A DNA stretch of 63,976 bases, filler included, from Nanobdellota archaeon (lineage in GTDB: Archaea; Nanobdellota; Nanobdellia; B33-G15): the NCBI GenBank assembly GCA_003660925.1. It is 6 parts of 6 records of this genome, joined end to end, with 100 filler letters (N's around TTAATTAATTAA, not from the genome) between each part and the next. Parts side by side here need not be neighbours in the genome. Positions count along the whole stretch, not along the records: positions 1 to 13,056 come from QMVD01000015.1; 5 more parts are not named here. One strand, written 5' to 3'. Below are positions 1 through 22,402 of this stretch, one piece after another. A program made the position numbers and the translations under genes. The notes beneath the pieces were generated by a model, which was given only the letters and a program-made list of their open reading frames with translations, was not told the origin of the DNA and searched no databases. The stretch's first letter is position 1, and the number at the start of each line of letters is the position of its first letter.

Positions 1-423
1 AAGAGGATTGAGGAGAGGGTAAGCCTCACCGACCTCTTCCCCACCATACTGGACGTCCTTGGGATGGATACTCCTGAAAACATAGATGGTGTCAGCCTCC
101 TACCGCTGATAAAGGGCGACGGAGGTTATGATAAGGAATACGTCCTCTCAGAACTGTGGGGTAGGCCCTTGGCAGGAGAGTACTTCCAGCAGGCGATTTA
201 TCGCGGTGATTGGAAGCTCATAAATGTTGTGCCTGATAACGACGTAATACCCCCATCTTTGTTCAATTTGAAGGAAGATCCTCACGAGCAGGAAAACCTC
301 TATGACATAAATGTGGAAGAGAGAGAGTTCCTGCTCCATTACTTGAACAACATAACAGGAGGAAAACCTCCCACGACATCCACATCGGTCAGCAACTTCC
401 TTTACTATTATTATTACCAGTAA
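1..423 (+). CDS. Sulfatase-family protein, C-terminal part (starts before the window)
   Basis: Frame open from base 1: ..ERVSLTDLFPTILDVLG..IDGVSLLPLI..GDWKLI..LFNLKEDPHEQENLY, typical sulfatase C-terminal motifs. Confidence 0.85.
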   Translation, partial: KRIEERVSLTDLFPTILDVLGMDTPENIDGVSLLPLIKGDGGYDKEYVLSELWGRPLAGEYFQQAIYRGDWKLINVVPDNDVIPPSLFNLKEDPHEQENLYDINVEEREFLLHYLNNITGGKPPTTSTSVSNFLYYYYYQ

Positions 424-458
424 CCTTTATTAAAAAAGAGTTCAAGCAAATAAGTGAC

Positions 459-1133
459 ATGATCTCCATCATCATCCCCACTCACATGGAAGAGAAGTAC
501 CTCCCAAGGCTTCTTGAATCGTTAAAGAGACAAACCGACAGGGACTTTGAGGTCATCGTAGTGGACTGGAACTCAAAAGACAAGACGAGGGAAATAGCTA
601 GAAAATATGGATGTAAGCTCGTGATGGCTGAAAAGAGAGGGATTGGGAGGGGAAGGAACCTGGGGGCAAAGCACGCCAAAGGAGACGTGTTAGCTTTCAT
701 AGATGCTGACATCGTCTTGCCCCCAAATTTCGTGGAGGAGGTCAAAGGGGTGAAATGTAATGCGGCCATATGCGAGTGGATCCCGCTTGAGGATGATTTG
801 TTGTTGAAATTGTATTACAGAATTAGCTATCTCTTTTGCAAGCTATTCAATCTCCTAGGAATAGGTCATTCCCCTGGCTTCTGCACCATCATTAGAAGGG
901 ACATCTTCGAAAGGGTGGGGGGTTACAATGAAGAGCTCCTTGCTGGGGAGGACCACGAGTTGGCGAGGAGGGTGAGGAGGCTCACCAAGATATGCCACTT
1001 GAAAGTCAAGATCAGGATGGATAGTAGGAGAGTGAGGAAAGAGGGCAAGTTCGGGATCATTTGGAAGTACACAGCAGCGGAGATAAGAGTGTTACTTGGG
1101 AAAAGAGTAGGAGGTTTTGAAATCGCGAGGTAA
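459..1133 (+). CDS. Glycosyltransferase family 2
   Basis: MISIIIPT, EVIVVD, FIDAD (DxD) and GEDHEL motifs. Confidence 0.92.
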   Translation: MISIIIPTHMEEKYLPRLLESLKRQTDRDFEVIVVDWNSKDKTREIARKYGCKLVMAEKRGIGRGRNLGAKHAKGDVLAFIDADIVLPPNFVEEVKGVKCNAAICEWIPLEDDLLLKLYYRISYLFCKLFNLLGIGHSPGFCTIIRRDIFERVGGYNEELLAGEDHELARRVRRLTKICHLKVKIRMDSRRVRKEGKFGIIWKYTAAEIRVLLGKRVGGFEIAR

Positions 1134-1165
1134 AAGATTTAAATGGAAGAGGTGCTTCCAGTCTC

Positions 1166-1663
1166 ATGGAAGTATTACCACGTCCGGAGAGCCTTGACCT
1201 GCGCCTAGATGCCTCCTTTACCGATTTCGAGTCGAAATTGAAGGATGGGGAACTGATCTTGGTGGTCAAAGAGAGGGAGACCATAACGGGCTGTCCGGGA
1301 ATCGTACCTCCAAAACAAGTGGAGCCCTGGTTCTTCTCCGTGGAAAGAAGTTACATTTTAGGGATCCTGGGCCCTGGTAAGCTCTCTCACGCGGAGGAGA
1401 GGATGGTGATCCCCACCAAAAGGTACGTGGAGTTCGATAGGAATAAGGTCGGTGAGGTGAAAAAGGGACCTATAGTGGTAGAGGAGCCCTACTCAAGTCA
1501 TTTTGGAATGAGGGTACCGATCAGGACGGAGCCCGTACCCTACTCCTCCCTCTCCTTGGAGTACGGACTCCTCGTATTCGTGGGGGAAAAGGAGATCTTG
1601 CCCGTGATGGAAAGGATGAGGTTACGCGCTGCTTACGCTAGGGCCCGCAGGATGCTCTATTAG
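1166..1663 (+). CDS. Hypothetical protein
   Basis: 165-aa ORF with TATA-like gatttaaat about 25 nt upstream; no family recognised. Confidence 0.6.
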   Translation: MEVLPRPESLDLRLDASFTDFESKLKDGELILVVKERETITGCPGIVPPKQVEPWFFSVERSYILGILGPGKLSHAEERMVIPTKRYVEFDRNKVGEVKKGPIVVEEPYSSHFGMRVPIRTEPVPYSSLSLEYGLLVFVGEKEILPVMERMRLRAAYARARRMLY

Positions 1664-2106
1664 CTCAGATATTTCCTGATCTCCTCGATGATCTTCCTTT
1701 TGACCTCTTCGGAAACCATTTGGGTCCTCTTCCTATCGTAGTGATATCCAAAATCTGGGTCTCTGAAGACCTCCCCAGCGAACTTCACTTCATGATCATA
1801 TCTTGGCCTGAAATGCCAGTGAACGTGAGGATTGGGTGGGTCGTGCTGATAGGCGTTGTTCATCAGACAGGTCCAGTTGAACATAGTGGCGCCGAATGCC
1901 TTCCTTAAAGCTGACTCCAACTTCCTGACCAACTCCACGAAATCGAGCCACTCCTCCCTTTTGAGTTCTGCAAGATCACCACAATGTCTCTTCAGTACCA
2001 CCACACACCTGCCGAGATAACTCTGCTCGAATGCTAGGAAGACCCTCCAATGTTTGGTCTCATAAATCAGATTTTTATCCGTCTCCTCGCAGTACCTACA
2101 TTCCAT
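1660..2106 (-). CDS. HIT family protein
   Basis: CxxC at the N-terminus and the HVHWH histidine triad. Confidence 0.9.
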   Translation of the reverse strand: MECRYCEETDKNLIYETKHWRVFLAFEQSYLGRCVVVLKRHCGDLAELKREEWLDFVELVRKLESALRKAFGATMFNWTCLMNNAYQHDPPNPHVHWHFRPRYDHEVKFAGEVFRDPDFGYHYDRKRTQMVSEEVKRKIIEEIRKYLS

Positions 2107-2239
2107 GTTCCTTAGCGTGCTCCGCTGGTTTTATAGTTTTTTCTCACAGTTTGTAAGCGTTCGATCTTTGCTACCCTTCATCTTGTCAACTCACAAGCTG
2201 ATGTAAACCTTTAAAAAAGGAAGGAGAATTCTCTTTCAA

Positions 2240-2359
2240 ATGAAGCGAAGTTCCAGGAAGTGGAAGAAGAAAATCACCAAGTTCAGATGGAGGACTAAAA
2301 AGAAGAGGATGAGGGAGAGGAAGAGACAGAGGAGGCTCCAAAGGAAGAAGTCCGCTTAG
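2240..2359 (+). CDS. rpl41e: Ribosomal protein eL41/eS32-like (39 aa, absent from the ORF track)
   Basis: Manual translation MKRSSRKWKKKITKFRWRTKKKRMRERKRQRRLQRKKSA resembles archaeal L41e; TATA-like ctttaaaaa about 25 nt upstream. Confidence 0.8.
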   Translation: MKRSSRKWKKKITKFRWRTKKKRMRERKRQRRLQRKKSA

Positions 2360-2400
2360 TTCTAAAAGTTTTTAAAATGAGGTGGAGGCATTAAGCTTGA

Positions 2401-2486
2401 GCGGGGGTGCCCGAGCCAGGTCAAAGGGGCAGGACTGAGGCTCCTGTGCCTTAGTGGCTGCGTGGGTTCAAATCCCACCCCCCGCA
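2401..2486 (+). tRNA. tRNA-Leu(GAG)
   Basis: Acceptor GCGGGGG/CCCCCGC-A, anticodon arm CAGGA-CT-GAG-GC-TCCTG, long variable arm, GGTTCAAATCC. Confidence 0.96.
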
Positions 2487-2487
2487 T

Positions 2488-2817
2488 ATGATGTTAGAGT
2501 TGACTTTCATCCTGATGACCTCCCTACTCCTCTCAACGGGGAACATCCTGCAGAAGATGGGTAATAAGGGGTTTGATTTCGAGAAACTCATAAAAGACAG
2601 AGCATGGTTAACGGGCTGTATCTTGGCTTTCTTGAGCTTTCCTGTCATGATCTTAGCCCTCAATTTCATGAACATATCCGTCCTCCAACCAGGTTCCACT
2701 TTGAACCTCGTCCTCACCTTAATACTTGGGAGGCTCATTTTAGGGGAGAGACTGACTACAAAAGAATACGTTGGGATCCTCCTGATGATAGTGGGGGTGC
2801 TGTGCGTTGTGGCTTGA
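2488..2817 (+). CDS. Small DMT/EamA-like membrane protein
   Basis: Four hydrophobic segments; ISVLQP and LGERLT..YVGILL motifs. Confidence 0.75.
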   Translation: MMLELTFILMTSLLLSTGNILQKMGNKGFDFEKLIKDRAWLTGCILAFLSFPVMILALNFMNISVLQPGSTLNLVLTLILGRLILGERLTTKEYVGILLMIVGVLCVVA

Positions 2818-3139
2818 GCTCTCATGCGGTTTCCTGTTCGCTTGGGGCCTAGTAGTGTCGAAGTGGTTCGTGGTCTCTAACTTGGTAGGTAAATTCTTAC
2901 TACTTCCCCTCCTGGGCTTGATCTACGGCTCCGCCTTCCTCCTTTATCAATATCTCCTAGCGAGAAAAGACGTCTCCTATCTAGCCCCCATGACCGCCGC
3001 CTTCACCAACGCTTTCTCCGTGGGATTCGGCGTCCTCTTATTCGAGGAGTGGTTGAGCCCGATCCAGTGGTTCGGTCTCCTCGTGATATTTCTAGGTCTC
3101 TCCATCTTGAAATCTAGGGGTTTCACTTCTAAAAAGTAA
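2807..3139 (+). CDS. Small DMT/EamA-like membrane protein (likely partner of the upstream gene)
   Basis: VSYLAPM..GVLLFEEWLSPIQWFG motif; overlaps the upstream paralog. Confidence 0.72.
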   Translation: MWLELSCGFLFAWGLVVSKWFVVSNLVGKFLLLPLLGLIYGSAFLLYQYLLARKDVSYLAPMTAAFTNAFSVGFGVLLFEEWLSPIQWFGLLVIFLGLSILKSRGFTSKK

Positions 3140-3170
3140 AAAATAAAAGTCTTCTACTTCCACAGATATC

Positions 3171-4016
3171 ATGCGTGTGAGAAGGTCAACCAGAAGGGCA
3201 GCAATTTTGGTGACGCTTCCGGATCAGGTCGATTATGACCATGGACTCGTAAACGCTCCCGGTCTCTTTTCGGATGATGGGAAGGTCCACATCCCAACTC
3301 TAAAGAGGTATGAGGAAGAATTCATCGTGGCCAGCTTAAATGAACTGAGACCATCAGAGGCGTATCTTCTGGTGGAAAGTGAGTTGAAGGATGTTATAGA
3401 AGAGGTGGTGAGAAAGTTCGAAGGAGCACATCCTTGGCCCTTAGAACTCAGGATGAAGAGCGTATGGCTCCGACCGGAGTACGGAGATGTGTTTAAAGAA
3501 CTGTTCAAACTATGCGCGTCCGGGGAGATGGACATAGATTATGGCAGTACGTGCCACATCCCTATACACCTTGCCATTCAAGACATTGGGAGACTTTTTG
3601 AGGATGTAAACTTGTATTTCAATCACTCACCAGAACCCGTCCTGTTCAGAATCCCTGAAATTGAGCCAGAACTGAGTCTCAAGAACCTTCTTAGAGAGGA
3701 AGGTAGAATACACAGGGAAATCCTAGCCTCCCTCCTCAAGGCAGGAAGAGGTGAGAAATTTAAGCTCCCCACCAAGAAGCTAAGAAGTAAGATCTTATCA
3801 AAATACGCAGGACAACCTAAAGCAGAATACATCAAGGTAGGACGGAAGATAACCTCTGCCCTTGATTCTTTGAGGCGCGTAGGAGCGGTGAGAGAAGTAG
3901 AAGAGAAACAAGAGAAGGGATGGGGCTACACCACAACACACTGTATCCAGTTAACGAGATTCGGTAAGGCATGGGCCGAGAGCTTGGAGGAACTTCTTGA
4001 GGAGAAAGGAGCTTGA
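3171..4016 (+). CDS. Hypothetical protein, possible CARF-like domain plus C-terminal winged HTH (Csa3/DUF6293-like layout)
   Basis: Alpha/beta N-terminal region; C-terminal ..LDSLRRVGAVRE..IQLTRFGKAWA wing motif. Confidence 0.5.
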   Translation: MRVRRSTRRAAILVTLPDQVDYDHGLVNAPGLFSDDGKVHIPTLKRYEEEFIVASLNELRPSEAYLLVESELKDVIEEVVRKFEGAHPWPLELRMKSVWLRPEYGDVFKELFKLCASGEMDIDYGSTCHIPIHLAIQDIGRLFEDVNLYFNHSPEPVLFRIPEIEPELSLKNLLREEGRIHREILASLLKAGRGEKFKLPTKKLRSKILSKYAGQPKAEYIKVGRKITSALDSLRRVGAVREVEEKQEKGWGYTTTHCIQLTRFGKAWAESLEELLEEKGA

Positions 4017-4054
4017 TTAACTTTTAAAAGGATTCGCATCTTCTTTTCAAGAGT

Positions 4055-4128
4055 GGCCAGGGTAGGTCAGCCTGGTAGACTGGAGGCCTGTGGAGCCTCT
4101 GACCTGGGTTCGAATCCCAGCCCTGGCC
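4055..4128 (+). tRNA. tRNA-His(GUG) with genome-encoded G-1
   Basis: G+GCCAGGG/CCCTGGC-C, anticodon arm GAGGC-CT-GTG-GA-GCCTC, GGTTCGAATCC. Confidence 0.95.
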
Positions 4129-4283
4129 CTCGAAATACGAAGGGTTAAAAGGTCATGTCGTATAGGTGAGTGACGAAGAAGATTGGATAACTTGGGTCCT
4201 TACACTCCTACCAGGTGCGTTTGCTCACAAGGGAGAGACACATGGAGGATGCAAAATGATGTCTGGCGCAGGCGCCTTAAAAA

Positions 4284-4300
4284 CAAAAATCTTTATAAAT
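4284..4300 (+). promoter_or_regulatory. BRE/TATA promoter of the 16S rRNA gene
   Basis: caaaaatCTTTATAAAt about 200 nt upstream of 16S; the same CTTTATAAA core precedes 23S. Confidence 0.6.
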
Positions 4301-4458
4301 AGCTGATTTCGGCTCTTTATTGGGGTGCCTTAGAGCACGTATAACTGCCATAGCAAAAGATGGCGAGGGCTCGAGAAGGAGCCAAGCTCCGTCGATGAAA
4401 AGCCAACCTCCGGCTATGGCGACAAGATGTGATGATGAGCTCTTCCTTCATCATCGAA

Positions 4459-4486
4459 GTAGAGAGGTGGTGACACCCAGCGTGTT
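4459..4486 (+). other. 5' strand of the pre-16S processing stem (BHB)
   Basis: GTAGAGAGGT-GGTG-aca-CCCAGCGTGT pairs with 6058-6084. Confidence 0.88.
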
Positions 4487-5223
4487 CCCCCAACTCCAGT
4501 TGATCCTGCTGGAGGCCACTGCTATCTGGCTGGGACAGACATGCAAGTCTGGGAGGTTGGCTGGAACCTCCCGGCGCACGGCTCAGTAACACGTAGACAA
4601 CCTGCCCTCAGGAGGGGGATAACCTCGGGAAACTGAGGCTAATACCCCATAGGGGATGGGTACTGGAACGTCCTATCCCCGAAAGGGGCGGGAAGCCATG
4701 CTCTTCCCGTCCGCCTGAGGATGGGTCTGCGGCCTATCAGGTAGTTGGTGGGGTAACGGCCCACCAAGCCTAAGACGGGTACGGGCCATGAGAGTGGAAG
4801 CCCGGAGAGGGGCACTGAGACAAGGGCCCCAGCCCTACGGGGTGCAGCAGTCGCGAAACTTCCCCAATGCGCGCAAGCGTGAGGGAGCCAGCCAGAGTGC
4901 CCTACCTCTGGTAGGGCTTTTGGGGAGTCCAAACAGCTCCCCGAATAAGGGGTGGGCAAGACCGGTGCCAGCAGCCGCGGTAATCCCGGCGCCCCGAGTG
5001 GTGGCCACGATTATTGGGCCTAAAGCGTCCGTAGCCGGGCCATTAAGTCCCCTGTGAAATCCTACCTCTCAAGGGTAGGGCGTGCGGGGGATACTGGTGG
5101 CCTAGGGACCGGGAGGGGCCGAGGGTATTCCCGGGGTAGGGGTAAAATCCTGTAATCCCGGGAGGACCGCCGGTGGCGAAGGCGCTCGGCTGGAACGGGT
5201 CCGACGGTGAGGGACGAAAGCCA

Positions 5224-5269
<46 letters not shown>

Positions 5270-5332
5270 CTGCCCGCTAGGTGTTGCATGTCCTTAGGGG
5301 GCATGCAGTGCCGAAGCGAAGGCGTTAAGCGG

Positions 5333-5389
<57 letters not shown>

Positions 5390-5818
5390 AACAAGGGGTG
5401 AAGCCTGCGGTTCAATTGGATTCGACCCCGGGAAACTCACCAGGGGCGACAGCAGGATGAAGGCCAGTCTGAAGGGCTTGCCGGACGCGCTGAGCGGAGG
5501 TGCATGGCCATCGTCAGCTCGTGCCGTGAGGTGTCCAGTTAAGTCTGGCAACGAGCGAGACCCTCACCCCCTGTTGCTACCCGTTCCTCCGGGAGCGGGG
5601 CACTCAGGGGGGACCGCCTCCGTAAGGGGGAGGAAGGTGAGGGCGACGATAGGTCAGTATGCCCCTAATCCCCTGGGCTACACGCGGGCTGCAATGGCCG
5701 GGACAAAGGGATGCGACCCCGAAAGGGGAAGCAAATCCCCTAAACCCGGTCTTAGTCCGGATCGAGGGCTGCAACCCGCCCTCGTGAAGCCGGAATCCCT
5801 AGTAACCGTGGATCAAAA

Positions 5819-5880
5819 TGCCGATGAAGACATCGGGCTTCAGAGTAGTGAAGAAGCCATGCACAACTGAGTGCTTGAAG
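5819..5880 (+). other. Archaeal BHB-type intron in 16S helix 43 (after about E. coli position 1363)
   Basis: CCGTGGA/TCCACGG exon helix, TCAA/TTGA central 4 bp, 3-nt bulges AAT (5817-5819) and AGA (5879-5881); splicing gives CCGTGG-ATCAAAAAT-CCACGG, the normal 9-nt spacing. Confidence 0.88.
5821..5870 (+). ncRNA. Candidate intron-encoded box C/D guide sRNA
   Basis: C (CCGATGA) - 13 nt - D' (CAGA) - 3 nt - C' (GTGAAGA) - 12 nt - D (CTGA); the D guide has 9 bp complementarity to 16S 5500-5508. Confidence 0.65.
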
Positions 5881-5885
5881 ATCCA

Positions 5886-5926
<41 letters not shown>

Positions 5927-6057
5927 GCCACCCGAGTCGGGTTCGGATGAGGCCTCATCCTGTGGGTGAGGTCGAATCTGGGCTCGGCGAGGTGGGTTAA
6001 GTCGTCACAAGGTATCCGTAGGGGAACCTGCGGATGGATCACCTCCTTGCGCATCGG

Positions 6058-6084
6058 ACACGCTGGGCACCAAGACCTCTCTAC
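6058..6084 (+). other. 3' strand of the pre-16S processing stem (BHB)
   Basis: ACACGCTGGG-CACC-aag-ACCTCTCTAC, complementary to 4459-4485 with two 3-nt bulges around 4 bp. Confidence 0.88.
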
Positions 6085-6121
6085 ATCCTCACGCATTCCT
6101 ATCTCAGTACTGAGAAGAGGC

Positions 6122-6460
6122 TCATTGAGATAAGACGTAGTTCCTCGAGTTTCTCGTGCTATCTAGTCCCCTGAGTAATTTCTTGAAATAAGAGGCTCCC
6201 TTCGAGAAGACCCCCTCGTAATAAGCCCTCTTGTCCTCTGGGAGATCAAGTTTGGACAGGATGAGAAGCGCTTGTTTGTACACCCTCAGGGCGCAGGCAT
6301 AACCCATCCTCAAGCGCGTCAAGAGTTCTCCTGCCGTGAGGAAATCCTTGGTCTCCCTCTCGAGCTGGATGATGCCCACCAAGACGCTCTTCCTGTTCTC
6401 GCTACTCAACAGCTTCTCTATGTTCCTCACCTTCATCTCGAGCTCATCCGGGCTCCTCAT
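6122..6460 (-). CDS. Hypothetical helical protein
   Basis: 112-aa ORF with host-like composition and an AT-rich box about 25 nt upstream. Confidence 0.55.
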   Translation of the reverse strand: MRSPDELEMKVRNIEKLLSSENRKSVLVGIIQLERETKDFLTAGELLTRLRMGYACALRVYKQALLILSKLDLPEDKRAYYEGVFSKGASYFKKLLRGLDSTRNSRNYVLSQ

Positions 6461-6539
6461 GTTTGAAGTTTGGATTTATCCCTATTTATCTCTTTGTGCT
6501 CCTGGTAAAAGATTTATAAGGGGTTTGATTTCTCTCTAC

Positions 6540-6612
6540 GGGCCCGTGGTCTAACTGGCATGACGCCGCCCTTGCACGGCGGAGGCTGTGGGTTCGAATC
6601 CCACCGGGTCCA
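6540..6612 (+). tRNA. tRNA-Ala(UGC)
   Basis: GGGCCCG/CGGGTCC-A with G3:U70, anticodon arm CCGCC-CT-TGC-AC-GGCGG. Confidence 0.96.
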
Positions 6613-6651
6613 TTAAATACATAAAGGGAAAAGGCGTTCTTCTAATTCGAG

Positions 6652-7857
6652 ATGAGCACTATCCTCATCCTGGCAACGGTCCTGGCCACTTCCCTTTTGA
6701 TCAAGGAGATATGTAGGAGGTTAAGGATCCCCATCATCGTCGGTCAGATCTCAGCGGGCATCGTCCTTGGTTTGCCCCTGATAAGGTCTTTCCTCTTCGA
6801 TCCCAAAAGCTTCTCCCTCATAGACTTGTTATCACAACTAGGCATCCTCTCCCTCCTGTTCCTCGCCGGCTTGGAGATAGATTTCAAGAAAATCTTGGAG
6901 AATGCTAGAGATGCGATCTTGATCGCCCTTTCCTCCGCCTTCTTCCCATTCATCTTCGGCTTCCTCTTCGTTTACTTCTTCTTCGGAGGTTATTTCTCCT
7001 CCCAAGGTTTTGATCCCCTCACCCTCTCCCTGGTCTTTGGCATCGCTCTGGCCGTGACATCGGAAGGGACGAAAGTGAAGGTCCTCATGGACCTCAATGC
7101 GTTGGATACGAGGCTGGGGGCCATCATGGTGGGGGCTGGTGCCTTTGACGATTTGATAGAGATACTTGGTTTATCCTTCGTAACCGCGTTGGCCCAGACG
7201 GGGAGCACGGAAGAATTGGTGATGTTGCCCCTTAACCTCCTCGTATTCGCCTTCCTCTTCTTCTTACTAGCGAAGGTTATATCGAGGTTGTTGAAGTACG
7301 TGGAGAGGAAGGAAACGGATGTGGACCTCTTCCTCCTCGTCCTGATCCTCATGATGGGTCTGGCTGCCCTCTCCGAACTATTCTCCTTAGGCTCTGTCAT
7401 CGGGGCCTTCGTGGGAGGCATCCTCATGCAACTCTCCATGAGGAAAGTAAAGAAGAAAGAGGAGGAAGACATCTTGGATAGCTTCAAATTATTGTCCCTG
7501 GCCTTCCTCGCCCCCTTCTTCTTCGCCAACGTGGGGCTGAACTTCAACCTCCAAAGCCTGTTCGTGAACCCCTCCCTCTTGGTGGGAACCATCTTCATAG
7601 CCTTCATCGGAAAGATAGTCGGGACGATGGCCATCAAACCCCTTTCAAGGCTTGGTTGGAAGCAGTTGTACGTGATAGGATGGGCCATGAATTCAAGAGG
7701 GGCCGTAGAATTAGTGATAGCTCTGATGGCATTGGGAAACGGATTGCTTCCCCTTGAGGTCTTCTCGGTCCTGGTGGTCACTTCTCTGGTGACGACCTTG
7801 ACCTTCCCCTTTGTGCTGGAAAAGGAGATAAGGAAGGATCCCAAGTTGCTGGGTTAG
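6652..7857 (+). CDS. Cation:proton antiporter (CPA2/KefB-like)
   Basis: About 12 TM segments; LFLAGLEID, AFDD, FFANVG and SRGAV motifs. Confidence 0.9.
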   Translation: MSTILILATVLATSLLIKEICRRLRIPIIVGQISAGIVLGLPLIRSFLFDPKSFSLIDLLSQLGILSLLFLAGLEIDFKKILENARDAILIALSSAFFPFIFGFLFVYFFFGGYFSSQGFDPLTLSLVFGIALAVTSEGTKVKVLMDLNALDTRLGAIMVGAGAFDDLIEILGLSFVTALAQTGSTEELVMLPLNLLVFAFLFFLLAKVISRLLKYVERKETDVDLFLLVLILMMGLAALSELFSLGSVIGAFVGGILMQLSMRKVKKKEEEDILDSFKLLSLAFLAPFFFANVGLNFNLQSLFVNPSLLVGTIFIAFIGKIVGTMAIKPLSRLGWKQLYVIGWAMNSRGAVELVIALMALGNGLLPLEVFSVLVVTSLVTTLTFPFVLEKEIRKDPKLLG

Positions 7858-7899
7858 ATCACCGACAACTTTATTAAATCCCCTTCGTCCACTTTTCAC

Positions 7900-9549
7900 A
7901 TGCCCCGCTTCATCTTCGTCGTGGGTGGAGTTCTTTCGGGATTGGGGAAGGGAGTGGTCACTGCTTCCATAGGATACTTGATCAAGAAGTCTGGATACAA
8001 GGTGACTGCTATTAAGATAGACCCATACATCAACGTGGATGCTGGGACCCTGAGGCCTACCGAACACGGGGAGGTCTTCGTGACGGAGGATGGTGGGGAA
8101 ATAGATCAGGATCTCGGGACCTATGAGAGGTTCCTCGACATGGACCTCCCGAAGATGAACAACATAACCACGGGACAAGTTTACTTGGAGGTAATAAGGA
8201 GAGAGAGGGCGTTAGAGTACGGTGGGAGGGACGTGGAGGTCATACCTGACATCCCGAATGAGGTCAAGAGGAGGATCCTCATAGCTTCCAAAGGATATGA
8301 AGTCTCCTTGGTGGAGATAGGTGGGACGACGGGGGACGTGGAAAACCTCGTCTTCCTTCACGCTGCCAGGAGCTTAGCGATGGAATATCCTTCCGTGACC
8401 GTGATGGTGACTTATGTCCCCTTCCTGAGGAATGTGGGAGAGCTTAAGACAAAACCCACCCAACATGCTGTGGCGAAGCTCAGGGAAGTAGGTATCTTCC
8501 CGGACTTCATAGTGGCCAGATCGGAGAGCGGTTTGGATGAACCTAGGATCGAGAAGATCGCGAAGAATTGCTTCGTGAAGAGAGAGAACATCATAGACAA
8601 CCCCGATCTGGACTCCATCTATAGGTTGCCTCTCCTCTTCGAGGAGCAGGGGTTTACCGACAAGCTCTTGAAGAAGTTGGGGTTGAAGAGGAAGGGTCGA
8701 GATTTGAGGGAGTGGGAAGATTTCGTGAGGAAGATAGATGAAGCAAGGGAAAAAGTGAAGGTTGCCATCGTCGGAAAGTACGTGAGGTACGGGAAAGCAG
8801 AGCACAAGGACGTTTACCTCTCGGTCTTGGAGGCCATAAAACACGCCTCTTATCACTTGGGAGCAAAGCCTGAGATCGTCCAAGTATTTTCTCAAGACAT
8901 AGAGAGGATGGGAGCAGAGGAGATCTTGAAGGGTTTCGATGGGGTCATAGTCCCTGGCGGTTTCGGAAGCACTGGTGTAAAAGGGAAGATAGAGGCGATA
9001 AGATATTGTAGGGAAAATGATGTCCCCTATTTGGGTCTGTGCTTTGGGATGCAGTTAGCCGTAGTGGAGTTCGCCAGGAACGTCTGCGGGTTGAAAGGAG
9101 CCCACACCACTGAGATAGATTCCAAAACCCCCCATCCCGTGATAGATATCATCCCTAAGCAGAAGGAATTGATAGAAAAGAAGATGTATGGGGCCACCAT
9201 GAGGCTCGGCTCCTGGCCAGCAGTCTTGAAGAAAGGCAGTTTGGTTCACAAACTCTACGGCAAAGAAGTGGTGGAGGAGAGGCACAGGCACAGGTATGAA
9301 GTGAACCCGAAATACGTGAAGGTGTTGGAAAAAGCGGGACTCCTCTTCTCCGGGAGAAGTCCTGATGGGAACCTCATGGAATTCTTGGAGATCCCAGGTC
9401 ACAGGTTCTTCGTGGCGACTCAAGCTCACCCTGAATTCAAAAGCAGACCTCTGAGGCCCCACCCGCTCTTCCTCGGTTTCATAAGAGCTTGCCTCAAAAG
9501 AGTTCCCTCTTCCAGAAGAGTATCATCCCGAGGATCGAAAAGAGCATAG
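7900..9549 (+). CDS. pyrG: CTP synthase
   Basis: GGVLSGLGKG, KIDPYINVDAGT, GLCFGMQ, RHRHRYEV and HPEF motifs. Confidence 0.98.
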   Translation: MPRFIFVVGGVLSGLGKGVVTASIGYLIKKSGYKVTAIKIDPYINVDAGTLRPTEHGEVFVTEDGGEIDQDLGTYERFLDMDLPKMNNITTGQVYLEVIRRERALEYGGRDVEVIPDIPNEVKRRILIASKGYEVSLVEIGGTTGDVENLVFLHAARSLAMEYPSVTVMVTYVPFLRNVGELKTKPTQHAVAKLREVGIFPDFIVARSESGLDEPRIEKIAKNCFVKRENIIDNPDLDSIYRLPLLFEEQGFTDKLLKKLGLKRKGRDLREWEDFVRKIDEAREKVKVAIVGKYVRYGKAEHKDVYLSVLEAIKHASYHLGAKPEIVQVFSQDIERMGAEEILKGFDGVIVPGGFGSTGVKGKIEAIRYCRENDVPYLGLCFGMQLAVVEFARNVCGLKGAHTTEIDSKTPHPVIDIIPKQKELIEKKMYGATMRLGSWPAVLKKGSLVHKLYGKEVVEERHRHRYEVNPKYVKVLEKAGLLFSGRSPDGNLMEFLEIPGHRFFVATQAHPEFKSRPLRPHPLFLGFIRACLKRVPSSRRVSSRGSKRA

Positions 9550-10414
9550 AGAGCCCGAGGATGATGAGGAAAGCGTTGGGGGAGCGTTGGAAGGGGAGGG
9601 CGACGTTCATCCCATAGAAGCTCGAGATCAAGGTGGGAATCATCAAGATTATGGTCACCGAAGTGAGGAATTTCATCACGATGTTCAAGTTGTTCGATAT
9701 GATGGAGGCGAAGGCGTCCATCATCCCCCCGAGGATGTCTGAGTAGATGTTGGTCATCTCCAACGCCTGTTGGTTCTCCACGATCACGTCTTCTAGCAAC
9801 TCCTTATCCTGAGAGTACCTGGTGAATACCTTACTCTTCGTCAACTTCTCTATCAAAAGCTGATTGGACCTCAGGGAGGTGTTAAAGTAAACCAAGGCCT
9901 CCTCCAACCTCAACAACTTGAAGAGCTCCTCGTTCCTCATGGAGCGCCTCAGCTCCTCTTGAATGATATGAGTTTCCCTATTGATTTCCTTTAGGTACTC
10001 TAAGTAAAGCCTCGCGGATATGTAGAGGATCCTCAAGGTGGTCCTTATCTTCTTGGCAGTGCTGAACTTGCTCCTCCTGAGCTTCTCGATCACGTCATTC
10101 TCGCTGAAGCATATAGTTATCAGGTACTCGTCGGATATGATTATGCCCAAGGGAACCGTGAAGTACTCCACTCTCTCCCCGTTGGACCTCTTCTGCGGGG
10201 TCCTCACGATGATGAACCTGAACTTCTTATATCTCTCCGTTCTCGACTGCTCGTCCATGTCCCTTAAAGAGGAGAACATGAAGTCGGGGAGGTTGAACAT
10301 CTCCTTCAGTTTATTCACTTCTTCCTCGGTAGGTCGAACGACATTGATCCAACTATTCCTAGGGGGTTTTTCCCTCAAGTCCCACCTTATGGAGTTGTAA
10401 AAGACCTCTATCAT
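9494..10414 (-). CDS. corA: CorA-family Mg2+ transporter
   Basis: C-terminal YGMNV signature between two TM helices. Confidence 0.93.
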   Translation of the reverse strand: MIEVFYNSIRWDLREKPPRNSWINVVRPTEEEVNKLKEMFNLPDFMFSSLRDMDEQSRTERYKKFRFIIVRTPQKRSNGERVEYFTVPLGIIISDEYLITICFSENDVIEKLRRSKFSTAKKIRTTLRILYISARLYLEYLKEINRETHIIQEELRRSMRNEELFKLLRLEEALVYFNTSLRSNQLLIEKLTKSKVFTRYSQDKELLEDVIVENQQALEMTNIYSDILGGMMDAFASIISNNLNIVMKFLTSVTIILMIPTLISSFYGMNVALPFQRSPNAFLIILGLSMLFSILGMILFWKRELF

Positions 10415-10449
10415 GCAGAGAAGCGATTCCTAGATTATATAAAAGTTTT

Positions 10450-12015
10450 TCAAACAGGGCGATAAACCGGAGCGTAGGTTATCAAGCCACCATCCTTGTA
10501 AATCCTCCTGACCGTCGCTTCAACCTCTCCCTCGAATCCCTTTCCCACCTCCACCACTGGTACGTTCCCTTTCTCGTAAAGCCTCCTCATCACGCGCTTC
10601 GGGTTCCTCAATAAAGAAAGCCTCTCCCTCTTGGAGAGCTTCCTCACCTTCACCTCTGCCCTGGAAGGGATGCTGATGTTCTCTTTCGGCACATCGCAGA
10701 GGCACTCGTGGAGCAAGGGGTGTGGCTTAGGGGGATAGAACAAGAGGTCGCATTCCGGACATATCTCCACGCTGACCTTATCTTCACCCAAGGGTTCCAC
10801 GTACTCCGCCACGAATCTCATGTCTGGCCTGAAGATCTTCCTTATCCTGCTGGTGAACCAGTTATCATATGCCCTAAAATTGACCTCCTTCATCCTCCTT
10901 ATCAACTCCTCGACTCCTTCCACCCTTTTCCTCTTATCTACCCCATCCTCCACCAAAAAAGTAGCTGCTGTGCTCGAGTGGCCGGAACCAAAGGACACTG
11001 CTACTATCTTCTCTCCGGGATTCGCGTTGTCTAGGATCCTAGCGAGTCCTGTACAAGTTGAGGCAGCGTACACGTTTCCCGTCTCTGGGACAACGAAGCT
11101 GTACCTGGTCTTCTCTTTATATTCTTCCACACTAATCCTCAACCTCTCCTTTACTTCCTTGACATCATCAAAGTAGTTCGGATTCAGGAGGTCTTCTAAG
11201 GTGAACTCCTTGTCCTTTCCTGCCAGTATTCTAGGAAGTTTCCTCCCTGGCAAGTAGAAGTTGGGTTGATGGGTCACGAAGTGGTCTATCTCATCCCAAT
11301 CTAAGCTCCCCTCCTCCATGTGGAGGGCGAGACAGTTCAGCACGCTGTAGAGATATGACCTCTTGGTCACTGGGCCGAAGTGTAAGGGGAAGGGTTGGCC
11401 CGCAGGCCTCAGGAAATCCCTAGCTAATTCGGAGTGAGGAGTCATGTACTCTATGGAAGCCACTAAATCACCTTTGCCCACCACGAAGGCGGATCCTCCT
11501 GCCCCGCAAGCGAATTCCAAATCGTCCCCTGGAGGTCCCAAGGCTATGTCTACCCCTACTCCCATTCCATATCTAGCGCTTCCGGCCTTGACAGCATTCC
11601 AAGCTAGGGAGACTGCTTTCAGGCCAGCATCGCAGGCGCTCTCCATATCCACCTCCAACACCATGGGTCCCATGCCCAAGAAGGCTTTCACGTGCTTCGC
11701 GTCCGTCAGGACATCGTAGACCTTGGATTCCGTCCCAACGCAGAGAACCCCCTTCCTATCGAATGAAGAACCTATCTCCGAAGGAGGAACCTCGGCCATC
11801 TTCAGGGCCCGTTTAACGGCCTCTGTCGCCATGGTGATGGTGTCCTCTCCAGGCCCTGTCATGCTCTTGTAAAGGAGGCCCAACCCCCTCTCCGCCCTCT
11901 CCGCCTGTTGCTCGTTATCTTTCTTGATCCTTCCCTTGACGACCTCTCTTACCCTCACCTTAAAAGAAGGAAGGTAAATGCCATATCCTATGATCCCAAT
12001 CTTCCCCATCTTCAT
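10450..12015 (-). CDS. Hydroxymethylglutaryl-CoA synthase fused to a C-terminal DUF35-like Zn-ribbon/OB region
   Basis: GTES, ESAC, HQPN, GNVYAAS and SFGSG motifs; C-terminal CPEC..FYPP..CLC and VRRI..GLITY. Confidence 0.8.
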   Translation of the reverse strand: MKMGKIGIIGYGIYLPSFKVRVREVVKGRIKKDNEQQAERAERGLGLLYKSMTGPGEDTITMATEAVKRALKMAEVPPSEIGSSFDRKGVLCVGTESKVYDVLTDAKHVKAFLGMGPMVLEVDMESACDAGLKAVSLAWNAVKAGSARYGMGVGVDIALGPPGDDLEFACGAGGSAFVVGKGDLVASIEYMTPHSELARDFLRPAGQPFPLHFGPVTKRSYLYSVLNCLALHMEEGSLDWDEIDHFVTHQPNFYLPGRKLPRILAGKDKEFTLEDLLNPNYFDDVKEVKERLRISVEEYKEKTRYSFVVPETGNVYAASTCTGLARILDNANPGEKIVAVSFGSGHSSTAATFLVEDGVDKRKRVEGVEELIRRMKEVNFRAYDNWFTSRIRKIFRPDMRFVAEYVEPLGEDKVSVEICPECDLLFYPPKPHPLLHECLCDVPKENISIPSRAEVKVRKLSKRERLSLLRNPKRVMRRLYEKGNVPVVEVGKGFEGEVEATVRRIYKDGGLITYAPVYRPV

Positions 12016-12065
12016 ATGAATTCGTGAGGGATGTTTATAAAAATTTGGAAATTCCTTCCTCCCTC

Positions 12066-12614
12066 ATGATTACTTATGAAGAGGCTTTGAAGTTGTTGAA
12101 GAAGTACTTCGAGGAAGGCTCCTCCACGTTCAGCCATTCTAAGGCGGTCTCCGACTTCCTGTACGAGATATGTTCCAAGCCCTCGAAGCTCCACCCGGAG
12201 TTGGGGATAGACCCCGAGAAGATGAGGATCGTGGGGTTACTCCACGACATAGGCAGGGCAAGATGTCAAGAAAGGGATCAGGTCTTACATCCCTTCGAGA
12301 GCGGGAAGATGTTGAGGGAACATGGATTAAATGACATGGCGAAGATCGTGGAGAGGCACGGCATCGCGAATGAGATAGCTGAGTTGAGGGGGATGAGGGG
12401 GGATTTCTCCCCGAGGAATATAGAAGATGAGCTCCTCATTTACGCGGACTTCCACTTCAAGGGAGATCGATTCGTCTCCCTTCAGGAGAGGCTCAGGGAT
12501 TTGAAAGAGAGGAGCAAGGACAATCCAGAGAGGTTGAAGGCGTTGGAGATGTGCGAGGAGAGGATGGAGAGGATCATGAAGAAAATAGAGAAGTTATGCT
12601 ATTCGGAAACATAA
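12066..12614 (+). CDS. HD-domain phosphohydrolase
   Basis: HS..V, GLLHDIG, HP..G, ERHG and YAD motifs; ATG at 12066 preferred over GTG at 12024. Confidence 0.85.
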   Translation: MITYEEALKLLKKYFEEGSSTFSHSKAVSDFLYEICSKPSKLHPELGIDPEKMRIVGLLHDIGRARCQERDQVLHPFESGKMLREHGLNDMAKIVERHGIANEIAELRGMRGDFSPRNIEDELLIYADFHFKGDRFVSLQERLRDLKERSKDNPERLKALEMCEERMERIMKKIEKLCYSET

Positions 12615-12615
12615 A

Positions 12616-12624
12616 CTTTATAAA
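12616..12624 (+). promoter_or_regulatory. TATA box of the 23S rRNA transcription unit
   Basis: CTTTATAAA, identical to the 16S promoter core. Confidence 0.6.
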
Positions 12625-12778
12625 GGGACCGAAAGTTCTCCTATACACATGAGTACGTGAGGATAATCGATGATGCTTTCAGGCTGACGATTTCTGAGAA
12701 CTTGGATGAGCATAGGGAGTTAAGTGCTCTCTATGTGATGGCATGATCAAGATGAATGCCGCGCACAGAACAGGCGAA

Positions 12779-13056
12779 AGACGCTGTTGGGTGGATGGCT
12801 CGGCTCAGGCGCCGAAGAAGGGCGTGGCAAGCTGCGATAAGCCCGGGGGAGGCGCACGCAGCCTTAGAACCCGGGATCCCCTAATGGGAGTCCCCTCAGC
12901 ACTCCCGCAAGGGAGGGGGAACGCGGGGAACTGAAACATCTTAGTACCCGCAGGAAAAGAAAGCAATAGCGATTCCCTGAGTAGCGGCGAGCGAAAGGGG
13001 AACAGGGCAAACTGAACGGGTCGTCGCGAGACGGTCCGGATGTGGGGTTTTGGAGG
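12779..13056 (+). rRNA. rrl: 23S rRNA, 5' fragment (cut by contig end; 5' boundary approximate)
   Basis: GGTGGATGGCTCGGCTC, GCTGCGATAAGC, GAACTGAAACATCTTAGTACC and AGTAGCGGCGAGCGAA. Confidence 0.97.
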
Positions 13057-13156: not shown

Positions 13157-13702
13157 CTGACAATCGTTCGCACAATCTATATTGGTAGCGTCATCAGATA
13201 TGCAAGCGTAGTCGTATCCGCTTCCTCTGTCGAAGACGACTACATCAAATTCTCTCTTTCCGGTCTCTAGCGTTATGTTTACCCTTTTATATTTTATATC
13301 TCCTGTGTGGGAAACACAAGATGTGGCGTCATTCTTTACACCATCAGTGATTATCAGGTTATTCTCCCTTTCGAAGGCCAACTCATAGGTGTTCAAGGGG
13401 GTCCACTCCGCGGAGGAGATTATGGGGACAGAGGTGTAGGTCTGGTAAAAGATCCCTTTTTCAGTTACCCTGAGCTCATCGTTGGCGCCCACGTTTATGT
13501 CATACTTCCTCATGGTCCCCGTGCTCGCCACGTCCAGGATGAGCTCATTGATGTCCTCCATACTGCTCCTTATGCCATCTATGTTCGCCTTGTCAGAACT
13601 CTTTTGGACCAGAGGAGTCCCCCAGACGTAGACCATCCCGACAATGGCGATGATGATCCCAGATATTAAAACGCTGCTGACGACAGTGGACTGTGATCTC
13701 AT
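13157..13702 (-). CDS. Pilin-like/secreted protein with a class III-like signal peptide (3'-truncated)
   Basis: MRSQSTVVSSVLISGIIIAIVGMVYVWG N-terminus; directly downstream of two pilins. Confidence 0.7.
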
Positions 13703-13704
13703 CT

Positions 13705-14142
13705 TTACGGCACCTTACAAGTTGAGGTTGCCTCCACGTTTGGACTCCCTACCACTTTTATGTTGTAACTCTCGCCACTAGTCAGGCTGATGGAGCCTGT
13801 GACGGTTGCAGTACTGTCTCCATTCACGTAATCTTGGCTCAGCGAAGTAGCCTCCCCCTGAAGAGAACCGTCCATGGTGTAGACGAAGATCTTCAAGTCG
13901 GTTATCTGGGTGTCAGTAGGGTTCCTCAAATAAACGGTCACTTGGGACGTGCTACACGAGGAAGCATCTATCTTAAGGGCTGCTGTGGTCCCTACTGTGG
14001 ATTGAATGTTCTGTGCGACTTTGTTTTGTAAGTCACTTTGAATAGTCGTCATCCAATAATAGGCTGCCGCAGCAGCACTTACGGTCATCATCAGAAGTAA
14101 GACAGTAGCGACAACGGGGGTTATTCCCTTCTCACCTATCAT
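13705..14142 (-). CDS. Archaeal type IV pilin
   Basis: KG/ITPVVATVLLLMMTV class III signal; start placed at MIGEKG (alternative start 14154). Confidence 0.88.
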   Translation of the reverse strand: MIGEKGITPVVATVLLLMMTVSAAAAAYYWMTTIQSDLQNKVAQNIQSTVGTTAALKIDASSCSTSQVTVYLRNPTDTQITDLKIFVYTMDGSLQGEATSLSQDYVNGDSTATVTGSISLTSGESYNIKVVGSPNVEATSTCKVP

Positions 14143-14185
14143 TTTTACTCTCATATGCATCAATTGAAAAGTTAAGGTTTTATCC

Positions 14186-14632
14186 TTATGATACACACTT
14201 GGCAGTTGCGGTTGCCTCCACGTTTGGACTCCCCACCACCTTTATGTTGTAAGAGGTGTCCGGGTCTATCCCAGAGACGGTTGCAGATGCGGATCCCGTT
14301 GCGCCTCCGCTCAATGAGGAAGGAGTCAAGTCTGCCCCATTGATCAGCGCACCTGTCGATGCGCTGTAGACATATACTTTTAAGTCAGTTATATCCGTGT
14401 CCCCAGGATTTCTTAAGTAAACCTTCACATTATCGCTAGTGCCGTTACACTCCGCGGCATCTATCTTTAAGGAAGCGGCGCTCCCCACGGTTGACTGGAT
14501 GTTTTGGGCCACCTTGTTCTGTAAATCACTTTGAATGGTGGTCATCCAGTAGTATGCTGCAGCAGCAGAACTCACGGTCATCATCAATAACAACACTATC
14601 GCCACCACAGGGGTTATACCTTTCTTGTTCAT
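14186..14632 (-). CDS. Archaeal type IV pilin (paralog)
   Basis: MNKKG/ITPVVAIVLLLMMTV class III signal. Confidence 0.88.
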   Translation of the reverse strand: MNKKGITPVVAIVLLLMMTVSSAAAAYYWMTTIQSDLQNKVAQNIQSTVGSAASLKIDAAECNGTSDNVKVYLRNPGDTDITDLKVYVYSASTGALINGADLTPSSLSGGATGSASATVSGIDPDTSYNIKVVGSPNVEATATAKCVS

Positions 14633-14671
14633 GGTTTTTAACAACATCCTATCGATTTAAATATTTTCTTC

Positions 14672-15100: not shown

Positions 15101-15132
15101 ACATAAATTAAAAAGAAGGTAGTTAAAAAGTT

Positions 15133-16761: not shown

Positions 16762-16875
16762 ATTTGAGCACCCCCTTCTCAGAAAGTTGGCTGAATTAAA
16801 GAACTTTTGGTTCTTTTAAAAAGTTTACCCTGGAAGACTAGCCGATCCCCTAAAAATTCAGAAAGGGAAAAAGAC

Positions 16876-17097: not shown

Positions 17098-17133
17098 ACT
17101 CTTTTATTGGAACATTCCAATTAAAAATCTTTT

Positions 17134-17775
17134 CTAAAACCTCATCACGTAGAACATGTGGTCTTTTTCGAAGGGCTCTAACCTTTTCCTATCAATGATG
17201 CTCAAGTGCTCCTCCAATTCTCTTTCCACTTCTTTAAATATGTCCTTCGGTTTCTTGGTCACGTCTATGCTCCTTGCTTTGACAGCGAGCAATACATATC
17301 CTCCTTTCTTCAAGAACCTCGAGTTCTTCAAGAGGATCTCCACTTGATTGGGGGCAGCGATGTCCTGATAAATGACGTCGCATTGAGGTATCAAGTTCTC
17401 GTATTCTTCCACCTTATTCGCATCAGCCAGGAGAGGGAACATATTCTCCCTCTTTTCACAAACCATCACCAAGTCCCTCACGACCCTAGGCGCGATGTCC
17501 AAACAGAACACGTAACCGTTCTTTCCAACTATATCTGAGACGTGGGATGCTGTGGTTCCACTCGCCGCTCCCAGGTACAACACCTTATCACTTGGTTTTA
17601 TCCCTATCTCCTTGATCCCCTTCAAGATGGCAGCACACAACTTGCTCCTGTAGGGGTTCCACTGCCTATATTCCTTTCTTCCCTTCTTCACGAGCTTCTC
17701 GCCGTAGACCCTGAACCCAGGGGATAGGTTGAGGGTGAACAAGTGCTTCCCGAACTTGTAAATGCCCTCAAACAT
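17134..17775 (-). CDS. flpA: Fibrillarin (box C/D 2'-O-methyltransferase)
   Basis: WNPYRSKL, VLYLGAASGTTASHVSD and KARSID motifs. Confidence 0.97.
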   Translation of the reverse strand: MFEGIYKFGKHLFTLNLSPGFRVYGEKLVKKGRKEYRQWNPYRSKLCAAILKGIKEIGIKPSDKVLYLGAASGTTASHVSDIVGKNGYVFCLDIAPRVVRDLVMVCEKRENMFPLLADANKVEEYENLIPQCDVIYQDIAAPNQVEILLKNSRFLKKGGYVLLAVKARSIDVTKKPKDIFKEVERELEEHLSIIDRKRLEPFEKDHMFYVMRF

Positions 17776-18595
17776 ACTCCTTTTCCTCCAACTCTTCTAG
17801 CAACTTATCTCCAACGAACTCCCCGCCGAAGTAATCTACCTTCGCAGCTATCGCTATCTTAGCTGCTAAGCTCCTCGCAGCCTTTCCCTTTTTCTTTGCC
17901 CTCGCTACTAGTGGGTGTTGGATGAGGATACCATGTTTTGGTGGTTTTGCTCCTCTCGTTAAGTGTCTGAACAACGCTCTTTCAGCCCCTAAAAGTTGGA
18001 TGGTCGAACTTGGGAGTTTTGCCAGATTTTCCAAGGAGCCCGACAAAGAAATCAACTTTGCCCCTAACAAGGCACCGGCGAGTGTCTTCAAATTTGGAGC
18101 TCTCTCCTCCATCAGTTCATCTATTTCTTTCACGATCTTTGTCCTCACCCTCATTAGCTCTTCCATGAGACCGACGTAATAATTGATAACTCTCGGGTCA
18201 ACTCTTGATCCCAAATCATCCGGTCCTTTAGCCCTCTTCGCCATCTTGAGGAGCTTCTCCATGCTCTCTACACTCCTAACATCCCTGGGTCTCATGAGCC
18301 CGTAGACCTCCCTCAACCTTTCGTATAGTGTGTTGAGCATCTTATCGATCTCTTCTATTGAACTCACCAGGTGAGAGATCAACGAATCAGGCGTATACGC
18401 CTCTCTCAATTTTTTCTTGGTGAACTCAAGGAAGAATTCGTGTAGGAATCTTCTGAACTTCTCTTTTCCCATCAACTTCTCACCTACTTTGATGTAATTC
18501 TCATCCCTTTCTCCTTCGGATCTCAAGAACTTTTCCACAGCTTCTTTTGGGTCCTCCCAGATCTCGTCTCCACACCCAAAAGGGGTAAGCTTCAT
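17768..18595 (-). CDS. nop5: Nop5 (Nop56/58) box C/D RNP protein, short form
   Basis: APNL..LAG, LPSSTIQLLGAERALF, PPKHG and GKAARSLA motifs. Confidence 0.93.
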   Translation of the reverse strand: MKLTPFGCGDEIWEDPKEAVEKFLRSEGERDENYIKVGEKLMGKEKFRRFLHEFFLEFTKKKLREAYTPDSLISHLVSSIEEIDKMLNTLYERLREVYGLMRPRDVRSVESMEKLLKMAKRAKGPDDLGSRVDPRVINYYVGLMEELMRVRTKIVKEIDELMEERAPNLKTLAGALLGAKLISLSGSLENLAKLPSSTIQLLGAERALFRHLTRGAKPPKHGILIQHPLVARAKKKGKAARSLAAKIAIAAKVDYFGGEFVGDKLLEELEEKEYV

Positions 18596-22400: not shown

Positions 22401-22402
22401 AC

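Follow-up and report, generated by a model that had tools for sequence, protein, structure and literature searches.

The 16S rRNA gene of a Nanobdellota archaeon (lineage B33-G15, assembly GCA_003660925.1) was found to carry a 62-nt insertion, which is best read as an intron spliced at a motif of the bulge-helix-bulge (BHB) type and doubling as a working box C/D guide RNA for its own 16S rRNA; we put the probability of this reading at roughly 60%. The insertion was analysed within a stretch of 63,976 nucleotides (hereafter the window), of which positions 1-13,056 are contig C15 of the 672-kb genome (77 contigs, 88.5% complete) and the rest are five further contigs joined by N's, contig C16 occupying positions 13157-24465. 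The reading draws on a BHB motif at the borders of the insertion, an ordered set of C/D boxes that is retained in a second genus, and a 9-bp match between one of the two guides and a strand of the same 16S rRNA; from these features we infer splicing, circle formation, assembly of a ribonucleoprotein (RNP) and methylation. A preliminary description of this DNA had already taken the intron for a C/D guide aimed at its host. Of that proposal, the C/D layout stands, as do its retention in homologous introns and the 9-bp pairing of the D guide; the 23S peptidyl transferase centre (PTC) strand is lost as a target of the D' guide.

The insertion and its splice motif

In the Infernal (cmscan) alignment of the 16S gene to its Rfam model, 63 inserted bases stand against one model position in the loop of an 8-bp hairpin (model 1297-1320), and the intron covariance model R1 matches exactly 5819-5880 (Table 1). 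Taking out these 62 nt leaves the 8-bp stem and a 7-nt loop, the loop length of the consensus model. We take the hairpin to be helix 43 (h43) and the insertion to follow approximately E. coli position 1363. A second 16S copy, considered on account of a 12-mer on contig C1, was rejected, as BLAST returned the C15 gene alone.

A BHB motif is defined as two 3-nt bulges flanking a 4-bp helix (PMC7714728). The intron borders consist of a 4-bp helix, two 3-nt bulges on opposite strands and flanking helices, and this arrangement is kept in G002, a genome of the same family and another genus (G001 is of the same genus and G000 is the present genome). Both bulges lie 3' of the central-helix strand that they adjoin, as canonical handedness requires, and the outer helix covaries in G002 (GTGGA/TCCAC to GCAAA/TTTGC). 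At a BHB motif the splicing endonuclease cuts after the second base of the bulge, which here would remove 5819-5880. The genes needed for removal of such an intron are present in the genome: a splicing endonuclease (PF01974, 98.1 bits) and the ligase RtcB (PF01139, 574 bits). The BHB fold lies above the minimum-energy fold by 4.4 kcal/mol at 37°C and by 0.8 kcal/mol at 80°C, and the free circle is predicted to be open at 80°C. The high G+C content of the 16S gene (62%, against 48.9% for the genome) hints at a thermophilic host.

It is also conceivable, if improbable, that the 62 nt stay unspliced in the mature 16S rRNA as an expansion segment of the helix-43 loop, perhaps with kink-turns bound by L7Ae on the ribosome. 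Insertions are frequent in the rRNA of small-genome archaea, and splicing was not seen in RNA: among the contigs from three metatranscriptome runs and one DNA run, none, RNA or DNA, spans 5813-5866, and the apparent joints in those four runs are h43 hairpins of other organisms. An expansion segment would, however, have to account for a textbook BHB motif of correct handedness that G002 retains along with covariation in the outer stem, for the exact consensus loop length obtained by removal, and for the presence of the endonuclease and ligase genes.

An insertion at the same place in the helix-43 loop was also observed in L033, a metagenome contig (1601-1699; 16S 76.5% identical). It measures 49 nt, has BHB-like borders, contains no C/D boxes, has no Rfam C/D match and is unrelated to the 62-nt intron. 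The helix-43 loop seems, from the sequences at hand, to be a recurrent intron locus.

Table 1. Features of the 16S intron, its predicted targets and associated genes in the window
Feature	Position	Strand	Basis or remark
16S rRNA gene, intron host	4493..6047	+	Rfam RF01959, 1476.4 bits, model 1-1478
BHB intron, 62 nt, helix-43 loop	5819..5880	+	cuts 5818/5819 and 5880/5881 inferred, +/-1
Outer BHB helix h (h43 stem of the rRNA)	5805..5812 pairs 5882-5889	+	sequence and fold
Central BHB helix H, 4 bp, UCAA	5813..5816 pairs UUGA 5875-5878	+	read from sequence; identical in G002
BHB bulge 1, AAU, 5' splice site	5817..5819	+	read from sequence
H 3' strand UUGA (5875-5878) and bulge 2 AGA (5879-5881), 3' splice site	5875..5881	+	identical in G002
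Inner helix h', 2 bp	5820-5821 / 5873-5874	+	3 bp in G002
Box C, CCGAUGA (GAUGA core)	5821..5827	+	same in 4/4 intron versions
D' guide, 13 nt	5828..5840	+	positions 1-9 from D' invariant; changes at 10 and 13
Box D', CAGA (G002: CGGA)	5841..5844	+	sequence
D'-C' linker, GUA	5845..5847	+	G002: 7 nt, other sequence
Box C', GUGAAGA	5848..5854	+	identical to C' of NeqsR05, R12 and R21
D guide, 12 nt	5855..5866	+	positions 3-11 (5856-5864) pair with 16S 5500-5508
Box D, CUGA (G002: CAGA)	5867..5870	+	sequence
Predicted D-guide target, helix 34 5' strand	5500..5508	+	9/9 Watson-Crick pairs; G5502 opposite position 5
Weak D'-guide target candidate	4798..4805	+	8 bp including one G.U; C4802 opposite position 5
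Fibrillarin gene, 213 aa	17134..17775	-	PF01269, 283.5 bits (C16:3981-4622)
Nop5 gene, 275 aa, adjoins fibrillarin	17768..18595	-	PF01798, 141.5 bits

Box C/D layout and its conservation

Each C/D element of the preliminary description was found base for base where it had been placed. The GAUGA core of box C and the CUGA of box D make up a terminal C/D kink-turn motif, its GA pairs invariant in four of four intron versions, and CAGA, GUA and GUGAAGA (5841-5854) make up an internal D'/C' motif. The guide spacers of 13 and 12 nt, against an expected length of about 12 nt, are identical in length in G002. An alternative reading of box C, UGAAGA, overlaps the first at 5825-5830; in G002 its use would provide the usual A-A pairing with the D box CAGA, and in the versions that keep CUGA the overlapping word can vary and does, at 5828, all of which is suggestive only. 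The genes for the proteins of a C/D RNP are present and all score over cut-off, those for fibrillarin and Nop5 side by side in the window and that for L7Ae on contig C54 (105.9 bits).

The preliminary description had cautioned that three of the four boxes depart from consensus. The caution holds for box C, whose first two bases deviate, and can be dropped for C' and D', whose variants are typical of the lineage. The supplement of Dennis 2015 (PMC4644070, file 1) lists 26 RNA-seq-supported C/D sRNAs of Nanoarchaeum equitans, and we parsed their boxes from it: as listed there, 12 of the 26 have a CAGA box, in all 12 the partner is UGAAGA, and the pairs stand at D'/C' in 4 cases and at C/D in 8, so that an A faces an A in place of the consensus U-U pair. 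NeqsR05 has the element order of the intron (CAGA at D', a 3-nt linker, GUGAAGA at C', CUGA at D; PMC4644070). These stand-alone sRNAs resemble the intron in their spacers of 11-13 nt and in lacking a terminal stem, and some of them are circular; they differ from it in coming from genes of their own or from tRNA-linked transcripts, in having AUGAUGA, the consensus, as box C, and in their unrelated guides. Because the ends of N. equitans sRNAs are unpaired (PMC3491384), the lack of a terminal stem in the intron is no objection to it as a guide. Among the sRNAs listed for other archaea, CCGAUGA occurs at the presumed C box of M. kandleri sR120 and AUGAAGA is the C' box of Sac-sR6; the G002 pair CGGA/AUGAAGA recurs in L052 and L055, stand-alone sRNA-like loci of other class members.

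Covariance models and shuffling were used to judge how far chance could produce such a layout. In a 451-nt search the Rfam families sR41, sR44, sR47, sR3, sR2, sR9 and sR14 matched 5820-5872 or 5820-5880, all in one register, with sR41 on top (23.4 bits, E = 0.0018). At the scale of the 64-kb window the sR41 match has E = 0.26, and three further C/D matches of 18-23 bits lie in GA-rich stretches read as probable coding sequence; Rfam alone is therefore not decisive. A loose regular expression for boxes and spacing, composed after the intron had been seen, had two matches in the 672-kb genome (one at the intron, the other at a canonical sRNA of contig C25), one match over 40 block-shuffled genomes pooled, and none in 200,000 shuffles of the intron. 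A chance resemblance, in which box-like words and a 9-mer able to pair with 16S rRNA have turned up by accident in a small purine-rich intron, could appeal to that window-scale E value, to the similar scores of the coding-like stretches and to the 13 other 9-bp matches of the D guide in the genome (the 16S target and the antisense strand of the guide itself left out of the count). It is nonetheless very unlikely, since four properly spaced boxes hardly arise by shuffling and the pattern is kept across genera whose spacers are 33-48% identical. Chance is a poor explanation of the layout.

Homologues of the intron are few; relatives of the present archaeon have genomes of 0.5-1.6 Mb. A 261-nt query across the intron gave end-to-end matches in G000, G001 and G002 alone of 61 genomes, and R1 matched 3 of 151 class genomes with 65-79 bits, the next best match having 14.5 bits. 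The order comprises four genomes, and the three carriers are the three whose 16S was matched; in the fourth, which is 72% complete, the 16S query matched nothing. A scan of species-genome and metagenome collections for 16S with an insertion of 46-76 nt at the hairpin returned six loci, of which five carry the intron (contig C15 itself, the records of G001 and G002, and another two contigs) and the sixth is L033. No stand-alone copy of the intron sRNA scored over 14.5 bits with R1 in the 151 genomes beyond the three carriers; some of the weak matches are C/D sRNAs, established or likely, whose guides are different, such as NeqsR21 in G013.

Alignment of the four distinct intron versions (alignment A2) gave 50 of 62 positions invariant and 12 variable. 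Variation falls in the D' guide at positions 13 and 10 (counted from D'), at base 2 of the D' box and of the D box, at all three linker bases (G002 having 4 nt more there), at the first base of C' (always a purine, G or A), in the D guide at positions 12 and 1, and at two bases immediately following box D; invariant are the box GA dinucleotides, D-guide positions 2-11 and D'-guide positions 1-9, 11 and 12. Between the present genome and G002 the intron is identical at 53 of 62 positions (85%), apart from the 4-nt linker indel, and the 16S exons at 1155/1325 (87%, 5' exon) and 146/165 (88%, 3' exon), while the 150-nt spacers are identical at 56/172 columns (33%) downstream and 75/155 columns (48%) upstream of the 16S gene. 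By this comparison the intron is constrained well beyond its splice borders, because its identity approaches that of the exons and far exceeds that of the flanking spacers. Loss of the boxes from homologous introns, which the preliminary description had named as grounds for giving up the guide, has not occurred: the second genus keeps the four box GA pairs and the paired D guide, and its D'-C' linker differs in sequence and length.

This constraint can also be explained by an intron that derives from an inserted C/D sRNA, is spliced at the BHB and no longer guides, its sequence being kept for splicing or pre-rRNA folding (e.g. through L7Ae at a kink motif, or through hairpins that hold the BHB). 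We consider such a lost guide a minority explanation, though not a negligible one. It is consistent with the retention in G002 of a 6-bp hairpin between the D' guide and box C by way of a G-C to G.U change, with the lack of a conserved D' target among those found, and with the box-less intron of L033, which indicates that the site hosts introns needing no guide function. A BHB needs border bases only, however, whereas as many as 50 of 62 positions do not vary and the variation avoids the box GA pairs and the guide cores; in G002, hairpins two and three of the 37°C fold are out of register, and the hairpins are predicted to melt at 80°C.

Targets of the two guides

For the D guide, the match claimed in the preliminary description was reproduced: GCCATGCAC (5856-5864) and GTGCATGGC (5500-5508) are exact reverse complements of each other, with G5502 opposite guide position 5. 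The pair GCCATGCAC/GTGCATGGC has these two occurrences in the window and no others, 0.20 being expected. The paired guide positions 3-11 are invariant in four of four versions, the changes falling at positions 1 and 12 only. Among tRNAs the best match of the guides is 10 bp with four G.U pairs. A duplex of 9 bp is normal in this genome, since the canonical sRNA of contig C25 (about 7316-7366, minus strand, outside the window) uses duplexes of 10 and 9 bp, the former between its D' guide and the 5' end of 16S and the latter between its D guide and the conserved strand with which helix 44 begins. The C targeted there by the D guide is, we presume, E. coli C1402.

Target sites of other archaeal guides were derived from the listed guide sequences by the plus-five rule. 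The helix-34 strand is also targeted by Sac-sR6, PCAsR49, IHOsR310, MKAsR120 and PNEsR49, at a site 3 nt upstream that corresponds to G5499 of the window, and no guide for the exact equivalent of G5502 was found among the listed archaeal guides. Helix 34 also contains Um1269 and Gm1271 of yeast (PMC5464676).

The D' guide has no comparable target. Of the candidates in the preliminary description, AAGCCCGG at 4798-4805 and 12839-12846 (among six matches in the window) survives as an 8-bp candidate, and the homologous G002 site of 4798-4805 also pairs, over 8 bp with two G.U. The 23S PTC strand, named there as well, was rejected for the genomes readable at that place: G002 and G001 read differently, and what is left of the pairing is 8 bp, two of them G.U, or 6 bp. 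The last ~100 nt of the G001 23S (L046) differ from G002 at several normally conserved PTC places; they lie at a contig end and may be assembly noise. 23S helix 72 (H72) was also rejected, since its 9 Watson-Crick pairs in G001 meet uncompensated changes in G002 (one C.A mismatch, one G.U); 263 of 5000 shuffled guides equalled this match. A site at 1886 of the G002 23S, with 9 bp in G002 and two mismatches in G001, was rejected too. A 23S site near G001 765 and G002 779 gives an 8-bp D'-guide pairing in both genera. Because D'-guide positions 1-9 are invariant, our best guess, from sequence comparison, is a short target for the D'-proximal end.

An AUCGG-like core was observed in common among the D' guides of the intron, NeqsR24, and the stand-alone C/D sRNA-like loci L052 (in genome G122), L055 (G134), L059 (G098) and L065 (G146), whose D'/C' boxes are CGGA or CUGA with UGAAGA. 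The best targets of these sRNAs differ and the register is off by one; a single D'-guide family across them is unproven.

Several results weigh against guide function. Box C departs from the RUGAUGA consensus at its first two bases, and the C box of G002 is of the U type yet faces a CAGA D box, unless the overlapping UGAAGA is taken. All Rfam C/D matches are far under their gathering thresholds (23.4 against 54 bits for the top match), so that no curated model accepts the intron, and the G002 intron scores just 16.6 bits; a new guide pair is not expected to reach gathering, because Rfam C/D families are largely defined by their own guides. The shuffle figures flatter the intron, because the expression was fitted to it after it had been seen. 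In the minimum-energy fold at 37°C, box C is hidden in the 6-bp hairpin with the D' guide. The 9-bp match was equalled by 175 of 5000 shuffled D guides (3.5%; 16S and the partial 23S of G001 taken together). Covariation between guide and target is ruled out as a test, because the D-guide target is universally conserved, and the other archaeal guides that target this strand are predicted to act 3 nt upstream of G5502 and not at G5502 itself. No D'-guide target conserved in both genera exceeds 8 bp. Finally, four distinct versions from just two genera are known.

Some further observations concern the rRNA genes of the window and of G001. The 23S of the present genome is limited to window 12819-13001, the gene being cut off by the contig end at 13056. 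It lies about 6.7 kb from the 16S gene (window 6048-12818), with a tRNA at 6540-6612 between them and space for more genes, and G001 shows the same spacing. Compared with that of G002, the 23S gene of G001 (L046, contig C70) contains an insertion of 579 nt (751-1329, minus strand) that encodes a 202-aa LAGLIDADG homing endonuclease (PF14528, 54.9 bits; open reading frame (ORF) 682-1290); the insertion is an rRNA intron of the classical kind and shares its operon with the mini-intron. Upstream of 16S, window 4325-4424 (plus strand) matches the Rfam H/ACA sRNA Pab19 with 33.1 bits, below the gathering threshold of 55 (E = 0.084 at window scale). The match sits between a tRNA (4056-4128) and the 16S start, and a candidate pseudouridine guide within the 16S leader is possible.

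Mode of action and relation to known systems

If the intron is a working guide, its maturation could proceed as follows. The pre-16S rRNA would fold the intron borders into the helix-bulge-helix-bulge-helix structure, the splicing endonuclease would cut within both 3-nt bulges, and RtcB would ligate the exons, giving the normal 7-nt h43 loop, and would probably circularise the intron. L7Ae would bind the C/D and C'/D' kink motifs, after which Nop5-fibrillarin would assemble. The D guide would then pair with 16S 5500-5508 and direct 2'-O-methylation of G5502; alternatively, it may just hold the helix-34 strand during folding. The guide could act in cis before splicing or in trans after it, and it would be made one to one with its target only if the intron is spliced and stable. 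More tentatively, the RNP may assemble on the intron while it is still part of nascent 16S rRNA and act in cis on the helix-34 strand, holding and methylating it, before the BHB is cut, the intron having come from an inserted circular C/D sRNA that was kept as useful; we hold this fuller account to be possible and distinctly less probable than guide function as such.

Archaeal C/D guides are known as free-standing genes, in tRNA-linked transcripts and in tRNA introns (PMC7994747, PMC3491384). A 2021 review of C/D sRNA gene contexts covers tRNA introns, tRNA-linked and intergenic genes, with no mention of an rRNA-intron context in its accessible part (PMC7994747), and a literature search, with subscription-only papers outside its reach, found no report of a C/D guide in an rRNA intron. 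The closest parallel is the C/D sRNA in the pre-tRNA-Trp intron of Euryarchaeota (Haloferax volcanii; sR50 of Pyrococcus), where the body of a BHB intron is likewise a guide for its host RNA, freed by the tRNA splicing endonuclease (PMC7994747). There, however, the host is a tRNA and both guides hit exons a few bases off, whereas here the host is 16S, the predicted target lies ~320 nt upstream, and one guide only has a clear target in the host. The 66-nt tRNA-Met intron of N. equitans, which belongs to the same class as the present archaeon by the genome grouping used, is of similar size and yields an intron RNA that is stable, shows box C/D features and includes a box C of variant sequence (PMC3491384). 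It differs in lying in a tRNA and in that the accessible text only suggests a function and describes no host-directed guide (PMC3491384).

The short ORF-less 16S BHB introns of Crenarchaeota (Thermoproteales, Desulfurococcales) resemble the present one in being small (theirs are <50 nt) and hairpin-forming and in lacking a homing endonuclease gene; they belong to another phylum, and the accessible text reports no C/D content for them (PMC4496867). Their listed loci are 374, 548, 722, 781, 803, 901, 908, 919, 978, 1093, 1205, 1213 and 1391 (PMC4496867), and ~1363, the position we presume for the present intron, is not among them. Eukaryotic intronic C/D snoRNAs are similar in that the guide is a splicing by-product of a host transcript of the translation apparatus (PMC7994747); they differ in lying in spliceosomal introns of mRNA-like hosts, not in rRNA, and in being released by debranching and exonucleases.

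If real, the intron would join BHB splicing, RNA circularisation and guide-RNP biogenesis, which share enzymes in archaea, and would widen from tRNA to rRNA the logic by which an intron guides its own host. It would also be a case of a small ORF-less rRNA intron retained by selection and not by homing, and would bear on the mobility of C/D sRNAs via circular intermediates. Were the guide to act in cis, modification, head-domain folding and splicing would be coupled, with one guide per ribosome; this would be the first case of a guide RNA carried by an rRNA intron, and a 0.7-Mb genome would express a guide without a promoter of its own. An added intron locus can disturb 16S primers and alignments, and small rRNA insertions in the metagenome-assembled genomes of tiny-genome archaea may conceal functional RNAs.

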